NCBI RefSeq assembly: GCF_030013595.1
Contig: NZ_CP122769.1
Reading direction: 5' to 3' (one strand)
DNA length: 64,000 bases
From: Escherichia coli
GTDB lineage: Bacteria; Pseudomonadota; Gammaproteobacteria; Enterobacterales; Enterobacteriaceae
Below the pieces are notes generated by a model. It worked only from the letters and a program-made list of their open reading frames with translations, did not search any database and was not told the origin of the DNA. The position numbers and the translations under genes were made by a program. Positions 32,639-53,314 of this stretch are shown piece by piece. Every line of letters starts with the position of its first letter. Positions within the stretch are counted from its first letter, which is position 1.

Positions 32639-32660
32639 CACAGCAACAAAGGAAACAGGT

Positions 32661-33116: not shown

Positions 33117-33138
33117 TCCACATCCCTAAGGGTAAAAT

Positions 33139-34179
33139 ATGGTTTCCACACACATCGGCTTCCCGACTGAAACGGTCATTGTTTTCATTGCGCTTTCAGT
33201 CGGTGCCATCTTTATTGACCTGTTTATGCACCGTGATGACAAGCCCATTTCCCTGAAGAGTGCGGCGCTCTGGTCCGTATTCTGGGTTGTGGTTGCGATG
33301 GCATTTGCCGGTTTCCTCTACATCCACCACGGTGCTGAGGTTGCCAGCCTGTTTGTAACGGGTTATGCGCTGGAGAAAGTGCTGTCGGTCGACAACCTGT
33401 TTGTCATGATGGCCATCTTCTCCTGGTTCGCCGTTCCTGATCGTTACCGCCACCGTGTTCTCTACTGGGGGATCATTGGTGCCATCGTCTTCAGGGGCAT
33501 CTTTGTCGCCATCGGTACGAGCCTGCTGAGTCTGGGGCCGTATGTTGAAGTTGTCTTCGCTATCATCGTCGCCTGGACGGCGGTCATGATGCTTAAAAGC
33601 GGTGATGACGATGATGAAATTGAGGATTATTCCCAGCATCTGGCTTACCGCATGGTTAAACGCTTCTTCCCTATCTGGCCGAAGCTCAGAGGTCATGCTT
33701 TCCTGCTTAACCAGAAGGAAGTGGATGCCGAACTGGCGAAACCAGAAAACAGCGATGTCACCATTGGCCGTGGTAAAAAGGCGGCGCTGTATGCGACCCC
33801 TCTGTTCCTGTGTGTGGCCGTGGTTGAACTCTCGGATGTTATGTTTGCGTTTGACTCGGTACCGGCAATCATTGCCGTCAGTCGTGAACCGCTTATCGTC
33901 TATAGTGCCATGATGTTTGCTATCCTGGGCCTGCGTACTCTGTACTTTGTCCTTGAAGCACTGAAACAGTACCTGGTTCATCTGGAGAAGGCCGTTATCG
34001 TGCTGCTGTTCTTCATCGCGGCAAAACTGGGCCTGAATGCGACCGATCACATTTGGCATCATGGTTACAGCATCGCGGCGACAACCAGCCTGTATGTTGT
34101 ACTGGGTGTTTTGGCGCTGGGCATTCTCGCAAGCGTCATGTTCCCGGGCAAACCTGAATCTGAGGAAAAGGGGAGCTGA
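33139..34179 (+). CDS. terC: TerC integral membrane protein
   Basis: 346 aa, multiple TM helices. Confidence 0.9.
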   Translation: MVSTHIGFPTETVIVFIALSVGAIFIDLFMHRDDKPISLKSAALWSVFWVVVAMAFAGFLYIHHGAEVASLFVTGYALEKVLSVDNLFVMMAIFSWFAVPDRYRHRVLYWGIIGAIVFRGIFVAIGTSLLSLGPYVEVVFAIIVAWTAVMMLKSGDDDDEIEDYSQHLAYRMVKRFFPIWPKLRGHAFLLNQKEVDAELAKPENSDVTIGRGKKAALYATPLFLCVAVVELSDVMFAFDSVPAIIAVSREPLIVYSAMMFAILGLRTLYFVLEALKQYLVHLEKAVIVLLFFIAAKLGLNATDHIWHHGYSIAATTSLYVVLGVLALGILASVMFPGKPESEEKGS

Positions 34180-34227
34180 TCCCCTGAAGTGTTAACCTGA
34201 ACAATTACTAATCGAAGAGGTTATTTT

Positions 34228-34806
34228 ATGAGTGTTTCTCTTTCCAAAGGCGGGAACGTCTCCCTGAGTAAAGCAGCTCCGTCAATGAAAAACGTCCTGG
34301 TGGGCCTTGGCTGGGATGCGCGTTCAACAGACGGTCAGGACTTTGACCTGGATGCTTCAGCATTCCTGCTGGCCGCAAATGGCAAAGTGCGCGGCGATTC
34401 AGATTTCATCTTCTATAACAACCTGACGTCATCTGACGGTTCCGTAACCCATACCGGTGATAACCGTACCGGTGAAGGTGATGGTGATGATGAATCGCTG
34501 AAAATTAAACTGGACGCCGTCCCGTCTGATGTTGACAAGATCATCTTCGTTGTCACTATCCATGATGCTCAGGCTCGTCGCCAGAGCTTTGGTCAGGTAT
34601 CCGGTGCGTTTATTCGCCTGGTCAATGACGATAACCAGACTGAAGTCGCTCGCTACGATCTGACCGAAGATGCGTCCACTGAGACTGCCATGCTGTTCGG
34701 CGAGCTGTATCGCCACAATGGTGAGTGGAAATTCCGCGCAGTGGGCCAGGGTTATGCTGGTGGTCTGGCATCTGTATGTGCTCAGTACGGCATTAACGCG
34801 TCCTGA
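34228..34806 (+). CDS. terD: TerD tellurite resistance protein
   Basis: 192 aa; [13 protein letters not shown]. Confidence 0.95.
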
Positions 34807-35877: not shown

Positions 35878-37119
35878 GTGAATCTACAATCCGGACAAAA
35901 CATACCGCTTCAGCAATCTGCGATCAGGCTGAATCTTCAGTACCCTGCCAAATCCGGCTTTAAAGGCGAACCCGATACCTGCCTCTTCCTGCTTAATGCT
36001 CAGGGAAAGGTAACCGGCGATTCTGACTTTATCTTTTATAATAATCTGTCTTCTCCTGAAGGGGCAGTAAAGCTCGTTACCGGTTCTCAGCAGTCCAGCA
36101 TTGAGATAGCACTGGATCGTGTTCCGGCGAACGTCAGTAAGATTGCGATCACCGTTGTCATTGATGGTGAAGATACTATCAGTGGGCTCAGTTTATTGAG
36201 CATTCAGGCTCCTGGTATCGCTGATTTTCAGGCTGAGACTCAGGGCCGCAGTGAGAAAGCAATCATCCTGGGTGAAGTATATCGGCACAATGGCGCCTGG
36301 AAGCTTCGTGCGCTCGGGCAGGGTTTCAACGGTGGTCTTGAGCCTCTGGCCATTAGCTTTGGCGTTGATGTCGCACAGCCAGCTCCGCAGCCAGCAAAGC
36401 CCGCTCGTATCAGTCTGGAAAAGAAACTTGAAACCAGATCTCCGCGCCTCGTAAGCCTCGCTAAAAAAGCCTCGGTCAGTCTCACTAAAAATAAACTGGA
36501 CACCCTTGAGGCAGCGGTTGCATTTGTACTTGACGCATCCGGCTCAATGAGTGGCCAGTTCAGTAAGGGCAACGTTCAGTCTGTGCTGGACCGCATCGCC
36601 GTTCTTGCCGCCCAGTTCGACGACGACGGTGAAATGGATGTCTGGGGATTTGGAGAGAAGCACAAGAAGTATCCAAACGTCACACTGGACAACCTGGACA
36701 CATATATTCAGTCCATTCGCGGGTCTGGAAAGCGTTCAGCCTGGGAGAACCTGCCGGGACTTGGTGGGACAAACAATGAGCCCCCTGTGATGGAAGAAAT
36801 TGTCGACTACTTTAAGGACTCGAAAATCCCGGTATATGTTGTATTTATTACCGATGGCGGGATCAGCAAGACCCGGGCGATTAAAGATGCAATCCGGCGT
36901 TCTGCCAACTACCCCATCTTCTGGAAGTTTGTCGGCCTGGGTGGTTCAAGCTACGGTATCCTCAAAAATCTGGATGACTTTACTGACCGCCGGGTTGATA
37001 ACACCCACTTCTTTGCCATGGATGATTTCGGTTCGATCAGCGATGAAAAGTTATATGATAATTTACTGGAAGAATTCAGACCGTGGATCGATGAAACAAA
37101 AAGGTTAGGCATCCTGTAA
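35878..37119 (+). CDS. terF: TerF (TerD-domain + vWA domain) protein
   Basis: 413 aa; N-terminal TerD-like domain, C-terminal vWA (VLDASGSM); GTG start with aggag RBS. Confidence 0.8.
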
Positions 37120-37681
37120 TACGCACAGTTTTCGCATGGTTAAAGGAGCTCTACAGCAGCTTAATACTGTAGAGCCTTTGTTCACTGGAAATCGTACAGG
37201 GAGGAGCATATGGACCGCATCAAGTACCTGAAATGGATAGCTGAAGAATCACCAACTGATGATGAAATCGACAACTACGATAGTATCATTAGTCGGGGCG
37301 CAGAAAGGGCCGAGAAGGTTCAGTTGTCTTTAAGACGTTAATATACGGGAGTTTAAATGTTCGCAGAAATCAAAGATAATTATTCGTTAGGTGGATAAAG
37401 AAAGGTTGCCATTACCAGCTTTCGACGAGTCGAAAATAAAAACCTTATTTATAGTGACAGGGAGTATGAGCTGACGCTTGCCAATGGAACAATAATTAAA
37501 AATGTACTTAGAAAAGAAGAGTGGGAACTGTTAGAAAGCAATTCAATTAAGGTTATATTATAACGAAAATATATTTACAGTTTTGGATAGGTTTCAAACG
37601 AGTCCGGACATTTGTACCTGAAGTATCTGACATTACAGTTAAGTGACGATTATGTCAGCACGTCTGTTGCTGGCAGCTTAG

Positions 37682-37963
37682 CTATCGGTCTAAAAGCTGA
37701 TCCATTAATAATTCTTCGTAAAGCCCAGAGGTATCGGGCTTTATTACAATATCCGTTATTTCGAAGCGTTCAAGTACAAATTGCAGATATTCCGGAGTAA
37801 CGTAGTAGGGATCAGGTTCAGCCAGATTAGTATAGAGTGGGTCTTCTGCTGCATTAATGTCATAATCAATGCACATATGAAACCACTGCAAAGGTGGATC
37901 CCAGCCTAACATCACCTGAACAATTCCCTGATTGCTTTTCACCTCATACCAGTGCTGGCTCAT
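37682..37963 (-). CDS. hypothetical protein
   Basis: 93-aa ORF. Confidence 0.35.
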   Translation of the reverse strand: MSQHWYEVKSNQGIVQVMLGWDPPLQWFHMCIDYDINAAEDPLYTNLAEPDPYYVTPEYLQFVLERFEITDIVIKPDTSGLYEELLMDQLLDR

Positions 37964-38012
37964 ACTTAGTCCTTAAGAAAATTTGTCATCGGAAAATAAC
38001 ACGAAGCCTGCA

Positions 38013-38204
38013 TCATCGAGGCGCATAACCTTCTTCCCTTAACGCCTGTTGTAATTTATCAACTGCGCTTTTCATTACCCAGGCTTCTTCGTCACTCACA
38101 GCACAACCACGTAGATCGCTCCAGCTCAGACGTTTAACAAATTGAGCAAGGGCCATAGTTTCGTTCTCATCAAGCCGCAAACTCAGTGTCTCAATACCTT
38201 CCAC
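38013..38204 (-). CDS. small hypothetical protein
   Basis: 63-aa ORF. Confidence 0.3.
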   Translation of the reverse strand: MEGIETLSLRLDENETMALAQFVKRLSWSDLRGCAVSDEEAWVMKSAVDKLQQALREEGYAPR

Positions 38205-38295
38205 TATCTAACCTCCCTTATAATGAAAAATGGCGCTTTACTTCTGACCAGATGCCGAAGCCTTGAATGCAGCCGGAACTGTCGTTGTTTCTACT

Positions 38296-38667
38296 TTACA
38301 GAAATGGAATTAAAAAGTGGTGATGCTGGGCACGTTTCTTTTCCAGCCGGGGTTTAAGCCAGAGCTGAAACTCATTCAACTTCTCAGCAGCCAAAACCGC
38401 TTCAACGGGGAAAACTTTATATTTACCCTGTTGCTGAGGTTCACCCAGCCATCGCCTGATGGCTCCGTCAGTCCATAAACGAGTCTCTTTTAGCCTAGTT
38501 ACAGTGACCCATTTTCTGGACCATTCATCAAATTGTCGCTGGCGATCCCGATAACGTTGTTCTTCCTGCTGCCGAAGCCACTCGCGATCAACAGCAAATT
38601 TTCGGTATCCAACAAAGAGCCCTTGTACTTTGGCCATGTCATATTCCGGTTGCTTAGAGTTACTCAT
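38296..38667 (-). CDS. hypothetical protein (basic, Arg/Gln-rich)
   Basis: 123-aa ORF. Confidence 0.4.
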   Translation of the reverse strand: MSNSKQPEYDMAKVQGLFVGYRKFAVDREWLRQQEEQRYRDRQRQFDEWSRKWVTVTRLKETRLWTDGAIRRWLGEPQQQGKYKVFPVEAVLAAEKLNEFQLWLKPRLEKKRAQHHHFLIPFL

Positions 38668-38970
38668 TCAACCAAAACCTAAACGTCGATACAAACTCTG
38701 TTTCATAACCAGGGTTTTATCCTTACCGCGACAGTAAGTAACAGGGGCTGCATAAACCGGTCATTTAGTCCGTTATGCAAAAATTATTGAGGATCCGGGC
38801 TGTTAAACTGTTCTTCCTCTTTCGCTTCCGGTGAAAAGGGGAGGTGTCACCCTGCGAGCCCGTGTAGTGAAAGGGATTCGTCGTAATACAGGCCAAAGGC
38901 TAACATGACCGCAAAGGACGCCCGGGCGACCGGATACCTGCCGGGTTGTGCGATGTAAAATCCGGAAGCA

Positions 38971-39402
38971 GTGATAACACAAACAGGCCCCTACAGCGTA
39001 AGGATTGTGATGGACGATAAAGAGCAGTTTACGAATCTTGTGGCAAAGCATGCCTCCGGACTCACCGAAGAGCAGCTGGCCGGGTACGATGCCTGTTCCC
39101 TGGATGGTGAATGCGTCACGCCTTCATACGAGGTTTTCCGGGGGTATCGTACCCGCCACACACTGGATGAATTTCTGGAGATGGCCATATCGCTGAATGC
39201 CATCCACCCGGATGAATATTTAACGGATATGCTGCTGAAGCCTCATGAGGTGATCGGCGCTCTGGCCGATGAAGGCGACCAGCTGAACAACGCCACCCCG
39301 GTTTATTTCTTTCCGGATACCGGCGTCTATGCAGCGGCCGTTAGTGAAACCCGGGTGCTCGATGCCTGGCTTTGCTGGCCATGCTACCCGGCGAACTGGT
39401 AA
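38971..39402 (+). CDS. hypothetical protein
   Basis: 143-aa ORF; likely start at internal ATG about 39010 (MDDKEQ). Confidence 0.4.
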   Translation: MITQTGPYSVRIVMDDKEQFTNLVAKHASGLTEEQLAGYDACSLDGECVTPSYEVFRGYRTRHTLDEFLEMAISLNAIHPDEYLTDMLLKPHEVIGALADEGDQLNNATPVYFFPDTGVYAAAVSETRVLDAWLCWPCYPANW

Positions 39403-39876
39403 CGCGGCCGTTGGAATTGCACCGGCCGGATACGAATTTAACCGACCCCGTGGCGGGAAGGCTATCAGAGTTGCATGTCCTCATCCCTCAAGCCCCCTGC
39501 CAGGCCCCAACGTGCTGTCAGGCTTCGCCTGATTCCCGATCTGCGCCGATACTTCAGCCGATAACTTTTTGTTTTCTTTTTATTTTCTTCCCATCTCCTC
39601 AAAAATCGCGGGCGGCGTGGACAGGGCACCATTGCCGCATGTGGGGTCTTAATAAGGGCAGGGTGGTCAGTTTTGCTCGATGCCAGGGGTAGGCCCTCCC
39701 CTTCATGGGATGAGGACATGCAAGTAAGCTAACTATCTGAAATGACGAAGGTTCATTTGGTGAATGTCGCTTCATATTAATGTTGTGTCACTTATGATCG
39801 TATGTAGCTGGTTGCAAAGAGGAGCGATGAGACAATAAAGTTGTATCGCTAACAAGATTTATGCTGCCACATAGTA

Positions 39877-39975
39877 ACAGCCTAAAAGTTGTACGCCCTA
39901 TTTAACAGCTTTTAGGCTGTTAATTTGATATTACAGCTTTTAGGGTGTATGTTTAGGAAACAGCCTGCAAGGTGT
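39877..39975 (+). promoter_or_regulatory. hipBA promoter with four phased operator-like inverted repeats ACAGC-N6-GYTGT
   Basis: Sites at 39877-39892, 39905-39920, 39933-39948, 39960-39975 (27-28 bp spacing). Confidence 0.55.
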
Positions 39976-40002
39976 ATCAGAGGAAACTACTGAGGCCAGC
40001 TT

Positions 40003-40299
40003 ATGATCAATAATGATTACCCGTTAAACACGCTCAACCAGCTGCGTCCCTTGCTCATTGGTTTTCGCAAGGCGAATGGCCTGACGCAAAAAGACCTGTC
40101 CGAAAGGTTAGGCGTCACTCAACAGACATACTCACGTCTGGAAGCCAACCCTGCCAGTGCGAGCATTGAACGGCTATTCAAGGTGTTTTCCATCCTGGGC
40201 GTAAAAATCAGCTTCTCCTCGGCAACCACCTCTTCAGAGAGGAAGCAGACGGAAGAAATGCTTAAATCAAACTCACCTGCACGACAGGAGGATTGGTAA
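40003..40299 (+). CDS. hipB: HipB-like HTH (XRE family) antitoxin
   Basis: HTH GLTQKDLSERLGVTQQTYSRLE; directly upstream of hipA. Confidence 0.85.
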   Translation: MINNDYPLNTLNQLRPLLIGFRKANGLTQKDLSERLGVTQQTYSRLEANPASASIERLFKVFSILGVKISFSSATTSSERKQTEEMLKSNSPARQEDW

Positions 40300-40303
40300 C
40301 GAT

Positions 40304-41629
40304 ATGAGCCGGAAACAGCAACGTCTGGTAATTTGGATGAACGGCATCAAAGTCGGGTACTGGGAAAAAAGCAAAGGGGTAGACAGCTTAGAATACCTTC
40401 CTGAATGGGTTGCTGACGAACAGGGAAGGCCGCTGTCATTGTCCCTTCCTTTTACTCCCGGGAACCAGGTCTGGCGTGGAAATGTGGTACGTGACTATTT
40501 TGATAATTTACTGCCGGACAGCGAAGGCATACGCAGACGTCTGGCAATGCGTTACAAGGCCGATAGCCTGGAGCCTTTTGATCTGCTGACGGAGCTGGGA
40601 AAAGACTGCGTGGGCGCGATACAGCTGCTTCATGACGGAGATGAACCCACTGATTTATATTCCGTGAAGTATCACCCGCTTACTGAATCAGAAATTGCGG
40701 CAACTTTGCGTAATACCACGGAGACATTGCTACCGGGCAGGCCAGAAGATAACGACGACTTACGTTTATCTATTGCCGGTGCTCAGGAGAAAACAGCCCT
40801 ACTGTGGCATGAAGATCGGTGGTGTATGCCGGAGGGTAATACACCAACGACGCATATATTCAAGCTACCGCTCGGACTTGTGGGGAACATGAAAGCCGAC
40901 ATGAGCTCGTCGGTTGAAAATGAATGGCTCTGCTCGGTACTTCTCGGCCAGTACGGGCTCCCCGTGGCAAGAACGCAGATTGCTCACTTTGAAGATCAGA
41001 AAGCGCTGGTGGTAGAACGTTTTGACCGAAAATGGTCAGGAGACGGACAATGGATCATTCGTTTACCCCAGGAGGATATGTGTCAGGCCCTGGGCGTTTC
41101 GCCATTACGAAAATATCAGGCGGACGGCGGGCCAGGTATATCGGAAATTATGGAGGTTCTGAGTAATTCAGACCGTGCTGAGCGTGACAAAGCGCAGTTT
41201 TTTATGACGCAGATAATTTTCTGGATGATGGCCGCAACAGATGGCCACGCTAAAAATTTCAGTATTTCTATTGGGCCACAGGGACGTTATCACCTTACAC
41301 CAAACTATGATGTGTTGTCGGCATGGCCGGTGATCGGTCATGGGAACAATCAGATATCCTGGCAGAAGTGCAAACTGGCGATGGCCGTACGTGGCAGTAG
41401 CAACTATTACCAGATATATCGAATACAACGACGCCACTGGATCAGGCATGGTGAGATAACCGGCCTGAGTAAACAGCAGACAGAGGCGATGATAGAGGAA
41501 ATCATCGCCAGAACCCCGGGTGTCATTGAACGTGTTAGCGGGCTTCTTCCGGACCAGTTCCCCCAGCAGCTTGCGGAAAGTATTTTTGATGGAATGAGGC
41601 AGCAATGCAGGCGCCTGGCTGAGAAATGA
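40304..41629 (+). CDS. hipA: HipA-family Ser/Thr kinase toxin
   Basis: 441 aa; motifs SIAGAQEK and DGHAKNFSI. Confidence 0.9.
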   Translation: MSRKQQRLVIWMNGIKVGYWEKSKGVDSLEYLPEWVADEQGRPLSLSLPFTPGNQVWRGNVVRDYFDNLLPDSEGIRRRLAMRYKADSLEPFDLLTELGKDCVGAIQLLHDGDEPTDLYSVKYHPLTESEIAATLRNTTETLLPGRPEDNDDLRLSIAGAQEKTALLWHEDRWCMPEGNTPTTHIFKLPLGLVGNMKADMSSSVENEWLCSVLLGQYGLPVARTQIAHFEDQKALVVERFDRKWSGDGQWIIRLPQEDMCQALGVSPLRKYQADGGPGISEIMEVLSNSDRAERDKAQFFMTQIIFWMMAATDGHAKNFSISIGPQGRYHLTPNYDVLSAWPVIGHGNNQISWQKCKLAMAVRGSSNYYQIYRIQRRHWIRHGEITGLSKQQTEAMIEEIIARTPGVIERVSGLLPDQFPQQLAESIFDGMRQQCRRLAEK

Positions 41630-41689
41630 CAGCCGCAATTTATAGTGTGCATGTTTTCAGAATAGCTGATGTAAGCGTGAGGATTCAGT

Positions 41690-41896
41690 ATGACTGAAGA
41701 ACAAAAAAGAATAGAGCGGGCTATTGAGTTGGCTTGTCGTTACGGCGGAACCGATGAAATGCATCATCTGCAATGGGTCGTGGATCAGATGGTAAGAGAA
41801 CTTGCTGGAGAACGTTATGCACAGATTGTAGCTGATGCCACCAGCGGAGAAGATGGGCCTGATACTTACAAATGGAGTGTTGGGATCGCGCCTTAA
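41690..41896 (+). CDS. small hypothetical protein
   Basis: 68-aa ORF. Confidence 0.3.
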   Translation: MTEEQKRIERAIELACRYGGTDEMHHLQWVVDQMVRELAGERYAQIVADATSGEDGPDTYKWSVGIAP

Positions 41897-41997
41897 CAGC
41901 TGTCGGTCTGGGGGTGAAAACGTATTCTTCATTCAGCGAATTCCCAGGCTTCACATTAAGACTAAAGCGGCGGCCGCAGTAACGTAAGAGAAAATAA

Positions 41998-42408
41998 ATG
42001 GCTATTTTAGCAATCATTGCAGTTATCGCCCTGGGTGGGTACGCCTACGGATTTATTAAAACCCGTGAGCTGAGCGCTTTGCGTAAAGAAATGAAACTAT
42101 ACGTGGATCGCATGGAAGCGGCGGAGCTGGACTTACACGCAATCAGAAGTGTAGCGGAGCACCGGTTGCACGGTGCAGGTAAACAGTTTGCCGACCTTTA
42201 CAGCCGTATCGACGGTGCAACTGTGACGCTGACACCCGAAGATCAGCTGTTACTGGCAACGATGCCATTTAATATTCAGGATGTAGAAGACATCGTAAAC
42301 GAGCGCGGTCCAAAGACAATTAGCGGCCGTCCATTCTGGGAAGTTGAGCCAGGCCTGCATGATTATGAATATGGCCCGCAATATCCGTATTTCCCAGACC
42401 AGCGCTAG
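41998..42408 (+). CDS. hypothetical membrane-anchored protein
   Basis: N-terminal TM helix MAILAIIAVIALGGYAYGFI. Confidence 0.45.
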   Translation: MAILAIIAVIALGGYAYGFIKTRELSALRKEMKLYVDRMEAAELDLHAIRSVAEHRLHGAGKQFADLYSRIDGATVTLTPEDQLLLATMPFNIQDVEDIVNERGPKTISGRPFWEVEPGLHDYEYGPQYPYFPDQR

Positions 42409-42420
42409 GAAGAGATCAAG

Positions 42421-43236
42421 ATGAGAGAGCCAAGACCACGCCATACCTTGCAGGTCATTCGTGTACCTTCTCTGGAGGTTCAGGACCTGGGGCTGACCAG
42501 CTTTGATAGCTGGCTTGACGAGCACGGGTATGACAAAACGAATGCCAGAAATAACCGTACCATCTGGGCGAGAGAAGGCGGATGGCATCTGAAACGTTGC
42601 AGAAATCTTGAAACTGGCACGGACGATTTCTGGTTTATCGCTTTCGATGGTAAAGGCGGGAAGATTTACCCGCTGAAAACCCAAAGAGACTACCGGGCTG
42701 CATATCGTAAGCTGGAAGCAGAAGGTTATGCGCCTGCGGTCATCGAGCAAATGACCACAGGCGCAGCATATAACCTGGCCTATCCACGTTCCACCCTAAA
42801 ACAAGCTGAGACGGCCACCAGCGAGCCAATTCGGAAACCTGACGTAGATATCCAGGGTGAGCACTGCGAGCGCGTAGTGACGCAACGTAGTGGCGTGGCA
42901 CAGGGTAAATTCAAAGCTCTGCTCATCGAGAATTTCGCAGGCCGTTGTGCGGTAACCGGTTGGGTTAATGGAGGTGTCCTGGATGCGGCACACATTGAAC
43001 ATGGAACCCGGTACAATCCGTCTAATGGCATCCTGATGACTCCAACAATGCATGCGCTGTTTGATGCCGATCTTATGGGCATAGATCCGGCCACCCTGAC
43101 CGTTCATTTTAAGCCAGGCATTGAGGTGGGCGAGCTGTTTGAAGGCCGTAAAATCACACCGCTGGTGTACGATCTGGACTTAGAGCGGCTGGCCGTACGC
43201 TGGGCAGAATACCAGGGCCTTGCTCAGGACCAATGA
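42421..43236 (+). CDS. HNH endonuclease-domain protein
   Basis: C-terminal motif FAGRCAVTG..LDAAHI..NGILMTPTMHALFD (HNH_2-type). Confidence 0.7.
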   Translation: MREPRPRHTLQVIRVPSLEVQDLGLTSFDSWLDEHGYDKTNARNNRTIWAREGGWHLKRCRNLETGTDDFWFIAFDGKGGKIYPLKTQRDYRAAYRKLEAEGYAPAVIEQMTTGAAYNLAYPRSTLKQAETATSEPIRKPDVDIQGEHCERVVTQRSGVAQGKFKALLIENFAGRCAVTGWVNGGVLDAAHIEHGTRYNPSNGILMTPTMHALFDADLMGIDPATLTVHFKPGIEVGELFEGRKITPLVYDLDLERLAVRWAEYQGLAQDQ

Positions 43237-43489
43237 AGGGTGACAGCCAGGTTGTGCCTAAACCTGGCAGTAAAACCTGCATGCCACAAACCTTTAAATT
43301 CTGACTCAAGAGCCTGGCACAAGATAAAAGCGAAATGAAAAGGTTAAAACCGGTGCACCAGACCTCTTAGGTTTAATACCTGAGCCAGTATACTGGCAGT
43401 CTCAGGTAAGTGGGTATCATACACTTCAGAAATATCCACACCGAGATAACCGCAACAGTTAAAGAGCTAAAAAGGACGGTTTTAATTTT

Positions 43490-43611
43490 ATGAATAAAAC
43501 AGCTTTAATTATGATTCTGGGAATCCTCGGATGTGGTAAAGCATTTGCAGCCACTGAATTACAGCTCCAGCAAAAACGCGTTATGCATTTCTGTGCCAAT
43601 GCCAGCCTTCC
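43490..43611 (+). pseudogene. small secreted/lipoprotein-like gene truncated by IS1
   Basis: ATG with aaggacgg RBS, signal-peptide-like MNKTALIMILGILGCGKAFAA; reading frame runs into IS1 inverted repeat. Confidence 0.4.
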
Positions 43612-43667
43612 GGGTGATGATGCCAACTTACTGATTTAGTGTATGATGGTGTTTTTGAGGTGCTCCA

Positions 43668-43943
43668 GTGGCTTCTGTTTCTATCAGCTGTCCCTCCTGT
43701 TCAGCTACTGACGGGGTGGTGCGTAACGGCAAAAGCACCGCCGGACATCAGCGCTATCTCTGCTCTCACTGCCGTAAAACATGGCAACTGCAGTTCACTT
43801 ACACCGCTTCTCAACCCGGTACGCACCAGAAAATCATTGATATGGCCATGAATGGCGTTGGATGCCGGGCAACCGCCCGCATTATGGGCGTTGGCCTCAA
43901 CACGATTTTCCGCCATTTAAAAAACTCAGGCCGCAGTCGGTAA
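43668..43943 (+). CDS. insA: IS1 InsA
   Basis: 91 aa, [23 protein letters not shown]. Confidence 0.95.
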
Positions 43944-44365
43944 CCTCGCGCATACAGCCGGGCAGTGACGTCATCGTCTGCGCGGAAATGGACGAACAGT
44001 GGGGATACGTCGGGGCTAAATCGCGCCAGCGCTGGCTGTTTTACGCGTATGACAGGCTCCGGAAGACGGTTGTTGCGCACGTATTCGGTGAACGCACTAT
44101 GGCGACGCTGGGGCGTCTTATGAGCCTGCTGTCACCCTTTGACGTGGTGATATGGATGACGGATGGCTGGCCGCTGTATGAATCCCGCCTGAAGGGAAAG
44201 CTGCACGTAATCAGCAAGCGATATACGCAGCGAATTGAGCGGCATAACCTGAATCTGAGGCAGCACCTGGCACGGCTGGGACGGAAGTCGCTGTCGTTCT
44301 CAAAATCGGTGGAGCTGCATGACAAAGTCATCGGGCATTATCTGAACATAAAACACTATCAATAA
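43862..44365 (+). CDS. insB: IS1 InsB (expressed as InsAB' by -1 frameshift)
   Basis: 167-aa ORF overlapping insA in the -1 frame. Confidence 0.9.
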
Positions 44366-44523
44366 GTTGGAGTCATTACCGGCAGCATCAACTACATCGC
44401 AAGCAGTAAGAGTAAGTGACGATGCCACAGCAAGACACAATAAAGAAAATCTGTTTTTGAACATATTTGAGACCTTTTATAAAAATAAAATAACAGGAGA
44501 ATTGTATCATTAACAGTCTAGTT

Positions 44524-45189
44524 CTAACGACTACCACTTTTAAGTATGTATTGAGCCAGTTTTATATTCAGGCACACCATATTGCACTCTAGCTCTTTCA
44601 TCATTCTTGAAGAACTCTTAATTAAGTATTCTTCAAGTGGGCCAGCATATGCCCCTGATGTCACGATCGTTAGTTGCGTAAGAGGATGAGTCAAACTCTC
44701 AATGCCCTTCAGGATGTCATTCTGGACAGCAGCAATATAAACAGGCGAAGCCGCAATCAAATATTCATCATTCGGGCTGGACTGCATTAACTGGCTTATA
44801 GTTGCGCAACGGTTATGCTTACCTAGTGATTTTGTGATGGCTTTCCACCAGAGATCATGCCTGAATGGTACTTGATGAAATGTCGCCTCGTAAGAGGGCA
44901 CCCGATCTCGACTATTTAAAAACCCCATCCCGGCAGAGATTATCCACAACTCCAGATTTCTGGTTGAGTTTAAAATTTCCTTTGCCGTAGACCAGTGATT
45001 ACCTGAATACAAGGACAATGCCGGTACCGCCTGATTACTTCTGGCGTCGTCTACAATGTTACTCCAGGCATATGCTGCGTCGTCCGGGGTTTGTTTTGGA
45101 TCTATGTCCAATGTCGGCCAGACGTGGCCCTGATGATTCTTGCCCTTTGTACAGGAAGTGATTAAGTGTACTGAGCGTTCAGAGAACAT
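44524..45189 (-). CDS. hypothetical protein
   Basis: 221-aa ORF, no recognisable motif. Confidence 0.5.
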   Translation of the reverse strand: MFSERSVHLITSCTKGKNHQGHVWPTLDIDPKQTPDDAAYAWSNIVDDARSNQAVPALSLYSGNHWSTAKEILNSTRNLELWIISAGMGFLNSRDRVPSYEATFHQVPFRHDLWWKAITKSLGKHNRCATISQLMQSSPNDEYLIAASPVYIAAVQNDILKGIESLTHPLTQLTIVTSGAYAGPLEEYLIKSSSRMMKELECNMVCLNIKLAQYILKSGSR

Positions 45190-45246
45190 TATCTTCCTTA
45201 CATACCCATAGAACAGCTTTCTAAGAACGGTGGGCTCGCCTGAAAA

Positions 45247-45627: not shown

Positions 45628-45895
45628 TGAAGCCTCGTCTCAGCGATAACGCTTGAAATAGCCCGCTTTGGTCATCATGAAATTAGCCATCTGACTGGCG
45701 ATTTGATTGTATCTTACTCATAGTGCCCTACCTATAGGTTAAAAAGGGGCATTTTCGCTTTATAGCGTGTTCAGCAGCATCAATCCTCCCAAGAAAGGCT
45801 GGCTTATTAAGCCGGTCCATCATTTTCTGTATATCTCTCATCAATTTTTATATCCGCCCTGGAGTGCACCGTTCAAGCACACCGATTAGGCAGAT

Positions 45896-45954
45896 AGTCA
45901 CTAGTTAACTCTTTACTAGTGACTAAATTCCATTGATATACGTGACAACGTCAC
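45896..45954. repeat. palindromic elements in intergenic region
   Basis: agtcactagt-taactcttt-actagtgact (10-bp arms) and gtgac-aac-gtcac. Confidence 0.5.
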
Positions 45955-46220
45955 GTCATGAAAGCTTTTAAATGCCTATTTTTCATACAATGGGATTTAA
46001 TTAGGAGTAAATCCCATAGGCTTACATAAGGATGACAATTAAAAGCGTTAAATATCAACCAGATAGAATGATTACCCCCAATTAATGGGCTCATCACATT
46101 ATTTCACTGGCTGGGGTTATTGCTGGCATATCTGAAAGTGCTAATATGTTAGTCATTAGTAATTAGTAAAGCCTTTACTAAACGCGTTTCTACGTAAATT
46201 CTATAGGTTTTATAGGGTCC

Positions 46221-46301
46221 TGTCCGAGGACAATAAAGTTGTACACAAAGCACTAAAGTTGTAACCATTCTCAAAAAACGACGCTAATGTTGTATACTTA
46301 C
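46221..46301 (+). repeat. Tn7-like right-end terminus with TnsB-binding-site-like repeats
   Basis: TGTCCGAG-GACAATAAAGTTGTA... parallels the Tn7R terminus TGTGGGCG-GACAATAAAGTCTTA (from memory); further AAGTTGTA/ATGTTGTA repeats at 46251-46270 and 46282-46301; about 80 bp upstream of tnsA. Confidence 0.55.
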
Positions 46302-46378: not shown

Positions 46379-47221
46379 ATGGCTAGGGGTAGGCGTCTCA
46401 AATCCTATTTGGATTATGAAAATGCGCTAGGTGACGGCATAGGAGTGGGCTATGGCCAAAGTTATCAGCCCTGGCTTAGAGCTCAGGACGTTAAATCCCG
46501 TGGAAACCGTTCGATAGTCTTTGGCCTTAAGACGTTTCGAAACCATCATCTCCTTTCTTCTGTCGAAAGTAACTTTTTCTATCTGGCTGAGTTTAATGAC
46601 TCGGTGATTGATATCCGGGAACAATTCCCACTCTTTCCTCTCCGGCTTACCCAACAAATAGCAAATCATCTACATTTTCAACATCCTATGGTGAGGGGAG
46701 TAAGAGGAGTACCTGTCGAAGTTCTGAATGTTATGACAACCGATTTTTTACTGACCTTGAGAACTCCTGAAGGCGGACTTCGATACAAAGCTATAGCAGT
46801 AAAACATAACGAGAGCATACCTGAACGCGAAGCCCAAAAACTTGAAATAGAGAGGATGTTTTGGCAGTTGATTGATGTTGAGTTTCAAATTTATGTTGGC
46901 TCGGAACTCAATAACGTCGTCGGTAAAAACATTTGCTGGGCTACTTCTGTATTAAGAGATGGTTCTGAATTTTATGATAAATATCCTCTTGATAAAATCC
47001 TATGGAAGCTTAAACCAGATGTTTATCCCATAGTAGGACTACGTGCAATGATTTCATCAATCTTTGGGGTAGATGCACAAGAAGCGATGATGTTATTGCA
47101 GGCAATGATTGGATTAAAAATGATAAATGTTGATTTATCATATCCAATACTCGAAACCGGTCTGATAAAGATAATTTCCAATGACCACTATATAGGACTG
47201 AACGCAAATGGATATTATTAG
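46379..47221 (+). CDS. tnsA: Tn7-like transposase subunit TnsA
   Basis: 280 aa, position and size; overlaps tnsB start. Confidence 0.75.
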   Translation: MARGRRLKSYLDYENALGDGIGVGYGQSYQPWLRAQDVKSRGNRSIVFGLKTFRNHHLLSSVESNFFYLAEFNDSVIDIREQFPLFPLRLTQQIANHLHFQHPMVRGVRGVPVEVLNVMTTDFLLTLRTPEGGLRYKAIAVKHNESIPEREAQKLEIERMFWQLIDVEFQIYVGSELNNVVGKNICWATSVLRDGSEFYDKYPLDKILWKLKPDVYPIVGLRAMISSIFGVDAQEAMMLLQAMIGLKMINVDLSYPILETGLIKIISNDHYIGLNANGYY

Positions 47222-49331
47222 GAATTCAGTCTGGCTCTCTCAAGGCACTGATTTGCTTGCAGAGGGACTTTACCGTGTTTTGGATTTTGACAGAAAGGTC
47301 GATTTGTTAATTTTGTTTAAAATAAAATCAGAAAGAACGGGTAAGCCAATCCCTTTCTCATTTTCAATGTTTAAATATTATATTGAATCAAATAGCATAA
47401 CTTGTAAAGATTATATATATCCTTCATATATGTTAGTAGATGAGAAAGAATTAACAGATAAAGACAGAGGAAGGCGAGATGAAAATTACAATATCATTAA
47501 AGATCTTGTAGATGACAGAATGTTTCTGTTCGACTATGCATTACATAAAAAGTCGCACCTTTTAATGGATTACTCAAGAAATAAAAAAATATCACAATAT
47601 ACTATCAGAACGCTTCTGGCGTTGTATTGGCGACATGGGCAGGATATTTATGCATTGCTACCCGCATTCTCGAACTGTGGCGCCGCTGGGAAAAGTAGAA
47701 TCAAACATGAAATTAAACTTGGGAATTCCAAAAAAAACAGAGCATTACCTAATGAACGATCACGTGTTTTCATTCTTAATGAAAGAGATATAAATAATAT
47801 TAGAAAATCTCTCATTACGTATCATTATAAAGTTAACGGAGATACGATAAAGAAAACATTAGAGAGACATATTGATTTGTATTTTAGGGATGAAATTAAA
47901 ACAGCAAACCTAGAAAATAGAGCTCCATATGTTCCTTCTTTAAAACAATTTTCATACTGGAATAAAAAACTCTTCACTAAAGATTTCTCGATAAATAAGA
48001 AGAACACGAAAAAAGAAATAGACCTCAAAATGCGGGCGCTTTTAGGTAGTGTGGCTAATACAACTGTTTTGCCGGGTGATGTTTTCGAAATAGACTCAAC
48101 TGTCGCTGATGTACATCTTATTTCGAGTTTAAACAGACGAAAAGTCATTGGGCGTCCTACTATTTATACAGTGGTGGATCGTGCAACAAGAATGATTGTT
48201 GGCCTTCATGTTTCTTTATACCATGCTTCATGGCGAGCCGCCCGACAAGCGTTAGCAAATTGCTTTATGCCAAAAAAAGAATATTGTAGATTATTTGGAA
48301 TCTCTATTACTGATGATGATTGGCCTTGTTCTCACATTCCATTAACATTGATGTGTGACAACGGGGAGATGATTGGTCTTAAACCTCAGGAAGAGATGAC
48401 CCCCCTGACAAAACTTGAGTTTGCGCCAGTCGGTAGAGGCGACAGAAAAAGCATTGTTGAACGCTGTTTCGGCATTCTGAATGATGAGGTTATTCATAGG
48501 CTTATTGGAACAACACGAAGGGGAAAGATTGTTAAAGGAGAGCCAACACCGCAATCCAGGGCTTGTTTAACGATTCAGGAGGTCACGTCTTTACTGATTC
48601 GGGAGATACTTGCACATAATCAGAGAACGTATGAGGAACTGGCTTATATCAATCCCTTACTGATTGAAAATGATCTCGTAATATCACCAAAAAATAGTTG
48701 GATGATAAGCTTAAAGCACGGGAGATTCAGCGCAAGAGCCGTTGGGGCCGACGAAGTGATCGCACGATTGTTAATCCCTGTGAACGCTAACATTACCGCC
48801 GGTGGGATTCAGTACAATAATCTTTTTTATGAATGTGATCCTGAAATTGCATCAGGTGTCAGAGTATTTGGAAGAACCACTTGTGAAGCAAGAATAGATG
48901 ACAATTGCGTAGATTATATATATGTAAGATTTGACAAAAATAGCATTTTCAAAAAACATTACCTACTTAAGAAAAGAGATGTATTTAAAGGGAAAGCTCA
49001 TCTTGATACAGATGTAATGGCTGATTGGGTAGATACTCAAAAAGAAATTAATTTATTTACTCTGGATTCGCTCAGCAATATCAATAATAAAGATGAATTT
49101 AACAGGAAAGGTAACGAAAGATTAAATGAAATATACGAATCTCGCCGGGTACATGGTAAAGATATTAAAAAGAACAGAAAAAATGAACTTGATTCATTAG
49201 GGCGAACTCATGTTGCTAATGGAAGATCTGAACCCCTACTTCCTTCATCCAGTAATGTTCTGCTTTTGCCTGGCCGGGAGGAGAAACAAAGATGGTTAAA
49301 AGGTAAGAAGAAGACTGAGGACGCAGAATAA
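47208..49331 (+). CDS. tnsB: Tn7-like DDE transposase TnsB
   Basis: 707 aa; DDE core region (EIDSTVADV..VVDRATRMIVG..MCDNGEM). Confidence 0.85.
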   Translation: MDIIRNSVWLSQGTDLLAEGLYRVLDFDRKVDLLILFKIKSERTGKPIPFSFSMFKYYIESNSITCKDYIYPSYMLVDEKELTDKDRGRRDENYNIIKDLVDDRMFLFDYALHKKSHLLMDYSRNKKISQYTIRTLLALYWRHGQDIYALLPAFSNCGAAGKSRIKHEIKLGNSKKNRALPNERSRVFILNERDINNIRKSLITYHYKVNGDTIKKTLERHIDLYFRDEIKTANLENRAPYVPSLKQFSYWNKKLFTKDFSINKKNTKKEIDLKMRALLGSVANTTVLPGDVFEIDSTVADVHLISSLNRRKVIGRPTIYTVVDRATRMIVGLHVSLYHASWRAARQALANCFMPKKEYCRLFGISITDDDWPCSHIPLTLMCDNGEMIGLKPQEEMTPLTKLEFAPVGRGDRKSIVERCFGILNDEVIHRLIGTTRRGKIVKGEPTPQSRACLTIQEVTSLLIREILAHNQRTYEELAYINPLLIENDLVISPKNSWMISLKHGRFSARAVGADEVIARLLIPVNANITAGGIQYNNLFYECDPEIASGVRVFGRTTCEARIDDNCVDYIYVRFDKNSIFKKHYLLKKRDVFKGKAHLDTDVMADWVDTQKEINLFTLDSLSNINNKDEFNRKGNERLNEIYESRRVHGKDIKKNRKNELDSLGRTHVANGRSEPLLPSSSNVLLLPGREEKQRWLKGKKKTEDAE

Positions 49332-50779
49332 TGAATCTTATACGGCGCGTTTCAGCGATATATAAAGAACAGGAGTTACCTGAGTATCGTGGCAATCCCT
49401 TAATTGAAGCACTTCCTGAAGCGCTTACGGAAGATGAAGTACTTCTGGAAATGAGTTATTTCCCCGAAATTGACGAAAAAATCCGCTGGACTGCCCCGGC
49501 GAATGTTAGAGAGCAGTATGTCGAACGTATAAAGAAATTCCGTTGCCCTCAAACCAATCTTATCCAGGCTTATAAGATGATCTTACGGGCACTTAGGGAA
49601 AGCTATGCAGCTCGTAATCCTTTAAAAAGCGGAACAATTCAATATCTTCATTACTATGGAAATGAGCGTCCTGATATTGAGCCAGAAAGTGGATATTTTA
49701 AATCCCAGGCTGAAACTATTACGATAGTTGGAATGAGTGGTTCTGGAAAAACTACCATGATTGAGCAAGTCATGGAACATTTCCCTCAGATTATAGAACA
49801 CAGCAGCTATAAAGGAGTTTTTCCCGGCTTCAGTAAGCAAATTGTATGGGTAAAGATTAATTGTCCATACAATTCAAGTGTGAGAGACCTTTGTGAAGAG
49901 ATTTTACAAAAATTAGATGATGCAATTGGTATTGAACGAACTACACCTGAGATTAGAAATGGTGCTCTGGCTCGCCAGATTGCACAAAGAATTAAATCAT
50001 CATTTTTGGGTATCCTTGTTATTGATGAAATGCAGAGGCTTAAATTTTCAAGAACCGGGGGTGAGAGTAAGTTGATTGATTTTTTACATGAAATTGTAGA
50101 TTCCATGGGGGTATCTATGGTTTTTTGTGGAAATCATCCTTTTGACGAGACGCTGACAAAGAAAATGAGAATTGCCAGGCGGGCAGAGTCTGGTGGTTAC
50201 ATGAAAATTAAGAATGTTAGATACGATTCACAAGACTGGCAATCGTTTATTCATTATTTATGGCCATTACAATGGACAAATGTTGAAACTCCATTAAATG
50301 ATGAGTTAAACGAAAAATTATTCATTTTATCTAAAGGCAATATTGGATTGGCTCAGATGATTTATCGGGGGGCACAATTAAAGGTTATCGGTAGCGGCAA
50401 TGAAATCATCACTGGCGCAGTCTTGTCGGCCTCTGTACCGGTACTCGTGAGTCATACGGAGGAATATAAGGATACTCCACTCCCGGGGGCCGCGACTGAA
50501 GATGAGGAAGCTAAATGGCTCTCTGCATCTAATGAGGGTGATGCTTCGGCTAAAATCATGGCAGAGAAGTCCCTAAAGTCTTTGATCCCTGGGGATATAG
50601 ACAGGCCACAGCACAAGGAATTCGTAGGAAAAATAGACGAGGTTTTGCGCAATTTCGACGAGAAAATACTGTCTCTTGACCACGATCTTGTTATCAACAG
50701 AACAGCTGAAAAGAAAAATACCTACGATGCTCTTCAGCGTTGCGGGCTTATAAATATAGATCCACTTAATAAATTGTAA
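49331..50779 (+). CDS. tnsC: Tn7-like AAA+ ATPase TnsC
   Basis: Walker A GMSGSGKTT, Walker B VIDEMQ. Confidence 0.85.
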   Translation: MNLIRRVSAIYKEQELPEYRGNPLIEALPEALTEDEVLLEMSYFPEIDEKIRWTAPANVREQYVERIKKFRCPQTNLIQAYKMILRALRESYAARNPLKSGTIQYLHYYGNERPDIEPESGYFKSQAETITIVGMSGSGKTTMIEQVMEHFPQIIEHSSYKGVFPGFSKQIVWVKINCPYNSSVRDLCEEILQKLDDAIGIERTTPEIRNGALARQIAQRIKSSFLGILVIDEMQRLKFSRTGGESKLIDFLHEIVDSMGVSMVFCGNHPFDETLTKKMRIARRAESGGYMKIKNVRYDSQDWQSFIHYLWPLQWTNVETPLNDELNEKLFILSKGNIGLAQMIYRGAQLKVIGSGNEIITGAVLSASVPVLVSHTEEYKDTPLPGAATEDEEAKWLSASNEGDASAKIMAEKSLKSLIPGDIDRPQHKEFVGKIDEVLRNFDEKILSLDHDLVINRTAEKKNTYDALQRCGLINIDPLNKL

Positions 50780-50819
50780 TGAGGTAACAGTTCGTAACGG
50801 TCAAAGAGAGGTGTGGGAA

Positions 50820-52376
50820 ATGAGAATGTTGCCTGTTTTGCCTGATGAATCCTTGTTCAGCCGGTTTTGTCGGACAACTACCGTGTACGGTATGTCCCCA
50901 TCTTCTCTGTTAACGATCATTTTCAACAAACCTGATATGAACGTCCATCCAATTCTCAATTCAGGATTAAAGGCTATTTCTCTTCATACATCCGAAAGTG
51001 CAGATCAGCTCTGGCATGAACAGACTTTACTCCCTCTTTTTGCCTGGGCACTACCAATCAGTCGTAATGAAATTATGGATTTCAACACGACCCCTGCCAG
51101 GCTTAATCGATTGTGCCGCCTTAGTAATTTTTCACTAGGGCAGCGCACACTATTGAAGTTTTGCCCGGTTTGCGCTCGTGAAGATACTTTTCATTATGGT
51201 GTTACTTATTGGCATCTGGCGCATCAGCTTCATGGGGTTACAACCTGCCATCGGCATCCGGTAGCGCTTGAAAGCATCCATGTCCCTTCTTCACCGCACA
51301 TACGTATTGGACTGATGCCTCCTGTTTCGTATACAGAACAACTTAGCAATGAGATAGACTTCGATTTTGCTAAGTTTTGTTATGAGTCCCTAAATATAAT
51401 CAGAAGAAAAGATATTACACACCCCAATTACATGGATGTACTTAAAAAGTTGAATTTATTATCATTGGATGGAAATTTAAAGAAAAATGTATTCTACGCA
51501 CATGTTTATGCTAAGTGCCAGTTATTTGGGGAGGGTTCATCGGGACTTATACCAACATCCCTAACTGATTATCATTACTGGGAGCCTATACTCAAAGACA
51601 AATGTTGTCAGCATCCCACAAAGCATCTTTTGCTTTGTTATTGTTTGTTAAATACTTGCTGGCCAACGTATGCAGGAAGTCGTACTAATAAAAAGAAAGA
51701 AATCTTTAAAAGTCATAAGAAATACAGTTTTCATATAGTTGAAAATAATACTAGTGTTAGCAACCTTGGGAAGGAATTTAGTCGCAGCAGATGTTACATT
51801 AAAACACTTATTTATAAAAAATACCTGAGGGCGTTTAAGCGAAACACAAAAATTAATATATTCACTGAATTGCTTATCAAGTCTATGGCTGTAAGGGGGT
51901 TTAGTCTGGCATCCATAGCTGAGAAAAACTCATTATCGGAAGGAGCTGTATCCTCTGTAATTTCATCTTGTTACGGTTTATGCTCATGGCGTAAAAAATG
52001 TAAAAAAGATTCTTTAAGACGGCGTCATAAGCAGAAAATATTAAGATTTATACATAATCAATCCGTTTCTATAACACGAAAGTTAGTCAAAGAAAGTTGT
52101 TATGCAAGTTTCTATTGGCTAAATAAACATGAATGTGACTGGCTTAATTCCTGTCTTCCTAAAACAATACGATGCTATAAAAATAAAAGAGTAGACTGGA
52201 GCGAGAGAGATATTATCTCATCATCATTAATAAATGATGTTTTATCTCAGGGGCAGTACTCGATGTCACTTACAAGTCTAGATGCTTTACTGGGAGGGCA
52301 TGGCTGGCTTTTGAAATACAGAGATAAACTACCAATGACAATGATACTTCTCAGAAAAATGGAACTAATTAAATAA
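50820..52376 (+). CDS. tnsD: TnsD/TniQ-family target-selection protein
   Basis: N-terminal LPDESLFSRF and zinc finger CPVC..H..CHRH; ATG 50820 with gagagg RBS. Confidence 0.7.
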   Translation: MRMLPVLPDESLFSRFCRTTTVYGMSPSSLLTIIFNKPDMNVHPILNSGLKAISLHTSESADQLWHEQTLLPLFAWALPISRNEIMDFNTTPARLNRLCRLSNFSLGQRTLLKFCPVCAREDTFHYGVTYWHLAHQLHGVTTCHRHPVALESIHVPSSPHIRIGLMPPVSYTEQLSNEIDFDFAKFCYESLNIIRRKDITHPNYMDVLKKLNLLSLDGNLKKNVFYAHVYAKCQLFGEGSSGLIPTSLTDYHYWEPILKDKCCQHPTKHLLLCYCLLNTCWPTYAGSRTNKKKEIFKSHKKYSFHIVENNTSVSNLGKEFSRSRCYIKTLIYKKYLRAFKRNTKINIFTELLIKSMAVRGFSLASIAEKNSLSEGAVSSVISSCYGLCSWRKKCKKDSLRRRHKQKILRFIHNQSVSITRKLVKESCYASFYWLNKHECDWLNSCLPKTIRCYKNKRVDWSERDIISSSLINDVLSQGQYSMSLTSLDALLGGHGWLLKYRDKLPMTMILLRKMELIK

Positions 52377-52387
52377 GAGGGAGTTAT

Positions 52388-53314
52388 ATGGTTTACGAAA
52401 ATGAATTGTGGCACAGTTTTCTTCTGCGTTCACAGATAATGTATAACTTATCCAATTGCAGGAACATAATATCAAAGCATGGCGCACTAAGGTACGATGC
52501 CTTTCCTCGTTTCGAACTGATTGATATGTACAAATTGCATAGCTTGCAGGATATATATGACATTCTTGCCACTAGAAATGGTTATATACTAACTTCCAAT
52601 ATAGTGTCGTTATCTTCTGGTGTTTACGGGTATTTTAACGCTGTTGAAGATGCCTGTCGGAAAAATTTTCACATAACTAATTCATATCCATTGGTAAACA
52701 TCTCAAACATTCGTTACTGTCACAAATGTATTGTTGAAGATATACACTCTAAAGGCATTGGTTATCTGCGTCATAGATGGTTGTTTGAATCTAAATGTGC
52801 AGTTCATAGTACCAGTTTATATGAGGTTTGTTTTGATAACTATTTGAATGCAGTGAAAGGACTTAGTGACTTAATTATAAGTGGAATAAATCCTCATGGT
52901 TATTGTTCCCTTGTGGTTGACGTTTCAAACCCTTTCAAAAATCCAGTGTATATATTACCATGTGCACGTAATAAAATTTTAAAATGGATTTCGGACAATA
53001 AAAATATGCTGATTTACTTTCTCTTTGATCTCTTCAAATGTAAGTCGCATTCAAGTTTATCTAAGGTTATCGAAGTCAAGATAATGCATGATAGATATAT
53101 TTCTGCGGTGTTCAAGATGTTAAGTGAAGTTAATTTTTGTAATTTCAACTCATTTATTTCTGATATTTTTGAGGACGTAAGTTATGCCTCTATCGGACTT
53201 GATGATTATTCTGTTAATGTGCATTTTCTCAGGCTAAGGGCTGCAGATTGTAAATTTTGCCAGTTGAATGGTAAATATTTTTGCTCACTTTACAATGTAA
53301 AATTTCTTCGCTAA
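52388..53314 (+). CDS. second TniQ-like protein (short)
   Basis: N-terminal ENELWHSFLLRS and C-x2-C-x22-C-x2-H motif (CHKC...CAVH). Confidence 0.5.
   Translation: MVYENELWHSFLLRSQIMYNLSNCRNIISKHGALRYDAFPRFELIDMYKLHSLQDIYDILATRNGYILTSNIVSLSSGVYGYFNAVEDACRKNFHITNSYPLVNISNIRYCHKCIVEDIHSKGIGYLRHRWLFESKCAVHSTSLYEVCFDNYLNAVKGLSDLIISGINPHGYCSLVVDVSNPFKNPVYILPCARNKILKWISDNKNMLIYFLFDLFKCKSHSSLSKVIEVKIMHDRYISAVFKMLSEVNFCNFNSFISDIFEDVSYASIGLDDYSVNVHFLRLRAADCKFCQLNGKYFCSLYNVKFLR

Follow-up and report, generated by a model that had tools for sequence, protein, structure and literature searches.

The stretch of DNA analysed here (the window, 64,000 nucleotides of the Escherichia coli contig NZ_CP122769.1, assembly GCF_030013595.1) is part of an IncHI2-type plasmid that carries tellurite-resistance genes, hipBA, IS1 and a sil-bearing Tn7-like transposon. 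It was found to share 99.9% identity with E. coli plasmids, among them pEco_M21170_247 (L002) and pAMSH1. The site under study lies upstream of the hipBA toxin-antitoxin operon, and the live Tn7-like element (the sil/pco element) begins downstream of that operon (Table 1). A search for structured RNA in 39300–40050 gave only sub-threshold noise from microRNA families.

The plasmid backbone at 39000–39723 is conserved, with 97% identity in an R478-like IncHI2A plasmid (L004) and 89% in the IncHI1 plasmid pHCM1 (L005). Every lineage diverges right after ...GGATGAGGACATGCA at 39723, and the homology of the R478-like plasmid resumes at 39854. It was also observed that the part from 39403 to 39723, which has no annotation and is conserved at 89–97% between IncHI2 and IncHI1 up to this common breakpoint, contains an inverted repeat (39468–39487 versus 39707–39723), and that past the breakpoint three lineages have three unrelated sequences. 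The region 39403–39723 may be a recombination hot spot or a module boundary.

Table 1. Positions of the features discussed, in window coordinates unless another plasmid is named.
Feature	Position	Strand	Details
130-bp lineage-specific segment with the relic	39724..39853	+	absent in L004 and L005; 87% identical to L006 8001-8130
Doubtful degenerate 'site 0', TGTCGCTT-CATATTAATGTTGTGTCACT	39765..39792	+	TGT exactly 8 bp before the weak site
Expected 8-bp terminal segment	39823..39830	+	reads AGCGATGA; terminal TGT absent
Orphan 22-bp TnsB-type site GACAATAAAGTTGTATCGCTAA, R1 equivalent	39831..39852	+	15-mer core 39831-39845; exact match to live R1
Deletion junction	39853..39855	.	1 bp microhomology (A at 39854)
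Four HipB-type palindromes, ACAGC-N6-GNTGT	39877, 39905, 39933, 39960 (39877..39975)	+	spacing 28, 28, 27 bp
hipB (flanking toxin-antitoxin operon 40003..41629)	40003-40299	+	Pfam HTH_3; RefSeq annotation of identical plasmids
hipA	40304-41629	+	Pfam HipA_C, Couple_hipA; RefSeq annotation of identical plasmids
Backbone attachment site of the live element	46163-46220 (window); 33237-33306 (L098); 1739-1808 (L023); 1592-1661 (L056)		empty: L001 13390-13500, L097 19725-20368
Live sil/pco right end and duplication	46216..46301	+	GGTCC 46216-46220; terminus TGTCCGAG at 46221; TnsB sites 46229, 46249, 46280
tnsA, tnsB, tnsC, tnsD and second TniQ-family gene	46379..53314	+	tnsA 46379-47221; tnsB 47208-49331; tnsD 50811-52376 (intact); second TniQ-family gene 52388-53314; Pfam, L002 annotation

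The window does not reach the left end of the live element. Read inward from its terminus, this end is TGTGTAGA-GACATTAAAGTTGTATCC...GACTTTAAAGTTGTAAAG in pEco_M21170_247, where GGTCC follows it; because this repeats the window sequence at 46216–46220, GGTCC is the 5-bp duplication. The empty site of the element was seen in pAMSH1. The 28-bp ends were identical to the published ones (Fang et al. 2016, PMC4855149), and transposition of the sil/pco element into the yhiN/yhiM site of E. coli has been demonstrated experimentally (PMC8417528).

The first-pass annotation had noticed a 15-mer, GACAATAAAGTTGTA, upstream of hipB and placed it at 39835–39849. The 15-mer exists, but its true position is 39831–39845, 4 nt to the left, and it is identical, as had been claimed, to the first TnsB-site core of the live right end (46229–46243). 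These two copies, both on the plus strand, are the only exact ones in the window. When up to two mismatches were allowed, 3 matches were found against 0.22 expected, a number reached by none of 100 shuffles. The shorter AAAGTTGTA occurred four times (at 39837, 39885, 46235 and 46255) against 0.67 expected.

By a matrix trained only on the 5 sites of the live element, the orphan site scored 25.0 bits, compared with 24.3–27.8 bits for the training sites and a best score of 19.0 bits in 30 shuffled windows. A second matrix was trained on three intact elements, with 11 sites in all and none from the relic. It gave 26.6 bits, within the range of the true sites of the family (22.5–30.1 bits), while all other window positions outside the live end scored below 12 bits. 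The remark that a 15-mer match in an AT-rich 64-kb window is not far above chance is therefore contradicted once the site is scored against a predefined TnsB-site model, and the window, with A and T at 0.269 each, is not notably AT-rich.

It had also been suggested, with reserve, that the 15-mer could be left over from the end of an earlier Tn7-like insertion, an idea to be given up if nothing similar extended beyond the 15-mer and no TGT boundary was present. In the window alone, similarity to the live right end indeed ended after the 15-mer (TCGCTAAC versus CACAAAGC) and no terminal TGT was found, so that the window by itself spoke against the idea.

A second repeat had been proposed at 39883–39897. 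This stretch does contain AAAGTTGTA, at 39885–39893, and the accompanying caution that it overlaps a hipB operator was correct: the first of the four operator palindromes, ACAGCCTAAAAGTTGT, has this copy as its right half. The pattern ACAGC-N6-GNTGT had 8 matches against 0.33 expected, and a promoter-like site at 39925–39953, directly upstream of hipB, overlaps operators 2 and 3. In E. coli hipBA, the operators are four TATCC-N8-GGATA palindromes bound by HipB. The array described here resembles them in having four evenly spaced palindromes upstream of hipB over a promoter-like site, which accounts for the second AAAGTTGTA; it differs in its half-sites (ACAGC-N6-GNTGT), and HipB would be its putative ligand. 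The R478-like plasmid has AAGGTTGTA where the window has the second AAAGTTGTA, and the 11-site matrix scored this copy as a TnsB site at 4.0 bits, which is background. By analogy with the E. coli operators, the second AAAGTTGTA is a putative HipB-type operator half-site and no part of any transposon end, and it was rejected as a part of the relic.

The segment that holds the orphan site is private to the lineage of the window, where about 700 plasmids carry it with 100% identity. It recurs in diverged form (87% identity) in pIMP-042001 (L006) and 17 other IncHI2A plasmids, and in these 18 plasmids the same site heads an array, of three sites in 17 of them and of two in the remaining one. The array of pIMP-042001 consists of GACAATAAAGTTGTATCGCT, AACATTAAAGTTGTATCGCT and GACATTAAAGTTGTATACTT at 0/20/53 bp, with scores of 26.6, 23.0 and 31.0 bits. 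In this plasmid, in p2723-384k (L098) and in the most diverged plasmid, pKAM645_2 (L094), which kept all three sites, the 15-mer of the window is the first of three in-register TnsB-type sites (23–31 bits). Although the window alone had argued otherwise, the sister plasmids thus support the idea of a remnant end.

In pIMP-042001 the array is followed by ~450 bp, a three-gene module and then hipBA. The window matches this plasmid up to 8130 and again from 11624, indicating that about 3.5 kb (8131–11623 of pIMP-042001), comprising sites 2 and 3 plus the three-gene module, were lost in the lineage of the window; only site 1 was retained, together with a few bases at the start of site 2. The three-gene module was found without the array in the R478-like plasmid and in a Lelliottia plasmid (L096), with homology beginning only at 8345 of pIMP-042001. 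In pESC15ND24-1 (L095, 1600–1640), exactly one 20-bp repeat unit is gone, a loss that slippage, or recombination of site 1 with site 2, could explain.

Genomes of 100,044 species, one per species, were scanned for AAAGTTGTA-N11-AAAGTTGTA. TGT-N5-(G)ACAATAAAGTTGTA emerged as a recurrent Tn7-like terminus across many phyla. The scan recovered the sil/pco right end in other hosts as well as intact relatives in Buttiauxella massiliensis (L044) and Citrobacter sp. NCU1 (L072), whose TnsA, TnsB and TnsC are 52–60% identical to the window proteins. The array adjoins tnsABCD in Buttiauxella and tnsA in Citrobacter. All four right-end arrays align in register with an invariant 15-mer, and their spacings are 0/20/51 (sil/pco), 0/20/53 (Buttiauxella), 0/20/52 (Citrobacter) and 0/20/53 (the relic in pIMP-042001), so that the number, orientation and spacing of the relic sites in pIMP-042001 are typical of right ends of this family. 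In the Citrobacter copy at yhiN (99–113), the 8 bp before the first site read TGGTGAAT, not TGT-N5, perhaps because the terminus has mutated or the sequence contains an error.

An intact donor with a ...GTTGTATCG... array was found in none of the 100,044 species genomes, although the family itself was recovered. Of two scans of JGI metagenomes, the first gave 0 matches and the second 14, of which 3 were true and all belonged to the IncHI2 relic.

Several features of a functional end were looked for at the locus. Only one strong site was present in the window (39831–39852); several direct TnsB repeats of ~22 bp occur only in the sister plasmids, with three sites in pIMP-042001, pKAM645_2 and p2723-384k and two in pESC15ND24-1. 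No TGT stands exactly 8 bp outside the terminal TnsB site: the 8-mer AGCGATGA is the same in four lineages (the window, pIMP-042001, pKAM645_2 and pESC15ND24-1), all of which lack a TGT. Compared with the Buttiauxella terminus TGTGATGT, 5 of 8 positions match, and AGC stands in place of TGT. Minus-strand sites of at least 10 bits, one chance match excepted, were absent from the window, L001, the R478-like plasmid and pIMP-042001. There was thus no inverted partner end, and no 5-bp target-site duplication could be tested or found. The tblastn searches with the window TnsA, TnsB, TnsC, TnsD and second TniQ protein gave a best E of 0.12 (window 36000–46220, pIMP-042001 and the R478-like plasmid), so neither tnsA, tnsB or tnsC nor a tns pseudogene was found beside the relic. 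The flank of the relic was also considered as a yhiN-like or plasmid-type attachment site and was rejected, its similarity being not above shuffled controls.

The exception on the minus strand, GAAAATAAAGATGTAAAT at 58464–58481 (11.4 bits), is a weak look-alike of a TnsB site directly after the stop codon of silS, and was judged to be a chance match. The match within it at 58467–58481 was rejected as the live left end because of this position; the real left end lies outside the window, past pcoE.

From these sequence comparisons, 39831–39852 is very probably the terminal-proximal, R1-type TnsB site from the right end of an extinct Tn7-like transposon in the IncHI2 backbone. The extinct transposon would have belonged to the same yhiN-targeting family as the resident sil/pco element but would have been a different member. 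It would have inserted in the IncHI2 backbone just beyond the variable hot spot (after 39723), and its tns genes, left end and terminal TGT would have gone before the present IncHI2 lineages diverged. What remained would be a solo array of three direct TnsB sites, persisting in 18 IncHI2A plasmids. In the lineage of the window, sites 2 and 3 and the three-gene module were then lost in an illegitimate deletion of ~3.5 kb with 1 bp of microhomology, which joined site 1 to the promoter region of hipBA and left only 32 bp between it and the first hipB operator. Against this reading stand the absence of a TGT, an inverted partner, a tns remnant and an intact donor, the single surviving site in the window, and a left flank unlike the flanks of the yhiN or plasmid attachment sites of the family. 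We also considered hipBA as leftover cargo of the dead element and found no support for this, because neither hipA nor hipB occurred in the part of the Buttiauxella relative that was examined and the live element held no hipA remnant.

Since neither a TGT terminus nor a 5-bp duplication could be demonstrated, the relic is regarded as a dead fragment and not as a usable end. It would be impossible to cut or join it, because it lacks both a TGT/ACA terminus and a partner end. Because its core is identical to R1, it may plausibly still bind the resident TnsB; the relic would almost certainly be an inert molecular fossil.

It was further considered that the end might be longer, with its true terminus at the TGT at 39765, a degenerate site at 39773–39792 and a 58-bp gap before 39831. 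The TGT does lie 8 bp before a sequence with a GTTGTG core, and the TGT and GTTGTGTCACTTATGATCGTATG are invariant in four lineages. However, 'site 0' scored only 4.3 bits (2.0 bits in pIMP-042001), and 36 window positions score at least 3 bits. In each of the three intact relatives it is the GACAATAAAGTTGTA site that is terminal, at a distance of 8 bp from the end, and the lineage breakpoint is at 39723, not 39764. As this reading was moreover found post hoc, we consider it unlikely, and 'site 0' is probably outside the relic end.

Another possibility is that the relic is still a working cis element which binds the resident TnsB, either as a target-immunity signal or as a modulator of hipBA transcription. 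The Tn7 right end contains a tnsAB promoter that is repressed by TnsB. At the relic, the core identical to R1 would make binding plausible, and a promoter-like hexamer pair at 39771–39798 lies just upstream and is directed toward hipBA. The array was also unchanged between pIMP-042001 and the diverged pKAM645_2, with 0 substitutions in 83 bp, compared with 20 in 231 bp outside it. Nevertheless, the 89-bp identical run of these two plasmids ranked only 10th of 759 runs, which indicates no excess conservation, and selective constraint on the array was rejected on this ground. Live tnsB was found in 3 of the 18 array-bearing plasmids. In p2723-384k all three sites of the array are present together with a live element 13.3 kb away, which sits in the usual site at its own distinct position, and in the window the live element is 6.4 kb away. 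In view of this co-occurrence, target immunity or exclusion by the array found no support. The array also proved dispensable, one unit having been lost in pESC15ND24-1 and two in the lineage of the window. A working cis element is thus decidedly unlikely.

It is likewise improbable that the orphan site or the full array recruits the resident TnsB and so couples transposase levels to hipBA expression in the lineage of the window, or weakly biases the landing site on the plasmid. If this were true, it would mean, together with the orphan HipB homolog of the transposon described below, cross-talk between the transposon and the toxin-antitoxin system of its carrier plasmid.

There is very little to suggest that the repeats arose by convergence, as operators or iterons for a plasmid-encoded DNA-binding protein controlling the three-gene module downstream. 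Operons are commonly regulated through direct repeats lying in front of them, and the array of pIMP-042001 lies ~450 bp upstream of the three-gene operon; but the module occurs without the array in the R478-like and Lelliottia plasmids, and the sequence, orientation and spacing of the repeats all fit the right ends of this transposon family. Mere chance identity of the 15-mer with a TnsB-site core, in favour of which are the single site in the window, the missing TGT, the end of the match at the 15-mer and our own estimate of roughly 4 repeated 15-mer pairs in 64 kb (64000^2/4^15), has next to no probability, since the motif was predefined and rare even with 2 mismatches, its score stands far apart from the rest of the window, and three sites with right-end spacing at this exact locus in pIMP-042001, pKAM645_2 and p2723-384k effectively refute it.

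Several observations were made on the live element itself. It entered the same IncHI2 backbone site at least 3 separate times, in one orientation and within 4 bp. The insertion contexts were ...tatagGGTCC (the window and pEco_M21170_247), ...agagGGTA (p2723-384k) and ...agagggtcCTAC (L023 and L056). In addition to yhiN, the element seems to have in this backbone site a second dedicated attachment site, and it is perhaps the second TniQ-family protein that reads it. A perfect palindrome, TTAGTAAAG-C-CTTTACTAA (46163–46181), lies on the right-end side of the insertion point, 35 bp away from it. In Enterobacter asburiae (L022, 13300–13482), the sil/pco element interrupts a yhiN-type gene (HI0933-like, Pfam E = 4.5e-49) within its final codons, and the reading frame continues into the right end, finishing ...ALADVRGQ*.

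The element also carries an orphan HipB homolog (53637–53966, HTH_3), which is 64% identical to the plasmid HipB and has no hipA partner. Upstream of it are two HipB-type palindromes, ACAGCCTATAGTCTGT at 53575 and ACAGCCTATATGCTGT at 53604. Shared operators or antitoxin supply could conceivably allow cross-talk between this homolog and the plasmid hipBA. An OLD-family ATPase/TOPRIM gene (AAA_15 and OLD-like TOPRIM) is split in the window (54470–55525 and 55522–56355), whereas it is undivided in pEco_M21170_247 (1827 bp, 36840–38666); the split probably reflects a frameshift in this gene, a defence-type cargo of the transposon. In pEco_M21170_247, ISApl1 is inserted in the tnsD of this element (32058–34686).

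Taken alone, the relic matters little: decayed solo transposon ends are common, and this one is apparently inert. The reused IncHI2 attachment site and the HipB homolog of the transposon may outrank it in interest. Nevertheless, the relic would record colonisation of IncHI2 by a second, now extinct yhiN-targeting family member before the major lineage split, and its states (0, 1, 2 or 3 sites) provide a simple IncHI2 lineage marker. It also offers a natural test in which a three-site array without a terminus does not stop entry of the live sil/pco element into the same plasmid, which bears on the number of TnsB sites needed for target immunity in this family.

The sil/pco element is a copper/silver resistance transposon that occurs on IncHI2 plasmids and in enterobacterial chromosomes. 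Compared with its right end (28-bp end TGTCCGAGGACAATAAAGTTGTACACAA; PMC4855149, PMC8417528), the relic has an identical first-site 15-mer, the same direct orientation and the same three-site layout, and GTTGTATACTTAC is common to its site 3 and the live R3. The 7 bases after each core differ, however (TCGCTAA versus CACAAAG), as does site 2, which points to an origin from another family member and not from a copy of the resident element. Unlike the sil/pco right end, the relic has no TGT terminus, adjacent tnsA, left end or duplication. The right ends of the Buttiauxella and Citrobacter relatives resemble it in the terminal site GACAATAAAGTTGTAT and in spacing (0/20/53 and 0/20/52), and the third site of the Buttiauxella end finishes in GTTGTATACTTAA as in the relic. 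They differ in that they abut tnsA and the target gene (yhiN for the Citrobacter copy), neither of which adjoins the relic.

Canonical Tn7 has a right end of four overlapping 22-bp TnsB sites with the terminal 8 bp TGTGGGCG, and it makes a 5-bp duplication at attTn7/glmS. Like it, the family described here has an 8-bp terminal segment followed by GACAATAAAGT... and tight direct repeats at the tnsA-proximal end. It differs in the core, which is GTTGTA and not GTCTTA, in having three sites and not four, with no terminus in the relic, and in its target, the sil/pco family being directed to yhiN and not to glmS. The feature at 39831–39852 is previously undescribed, yet it is an ordinary relic of a known kind of element.
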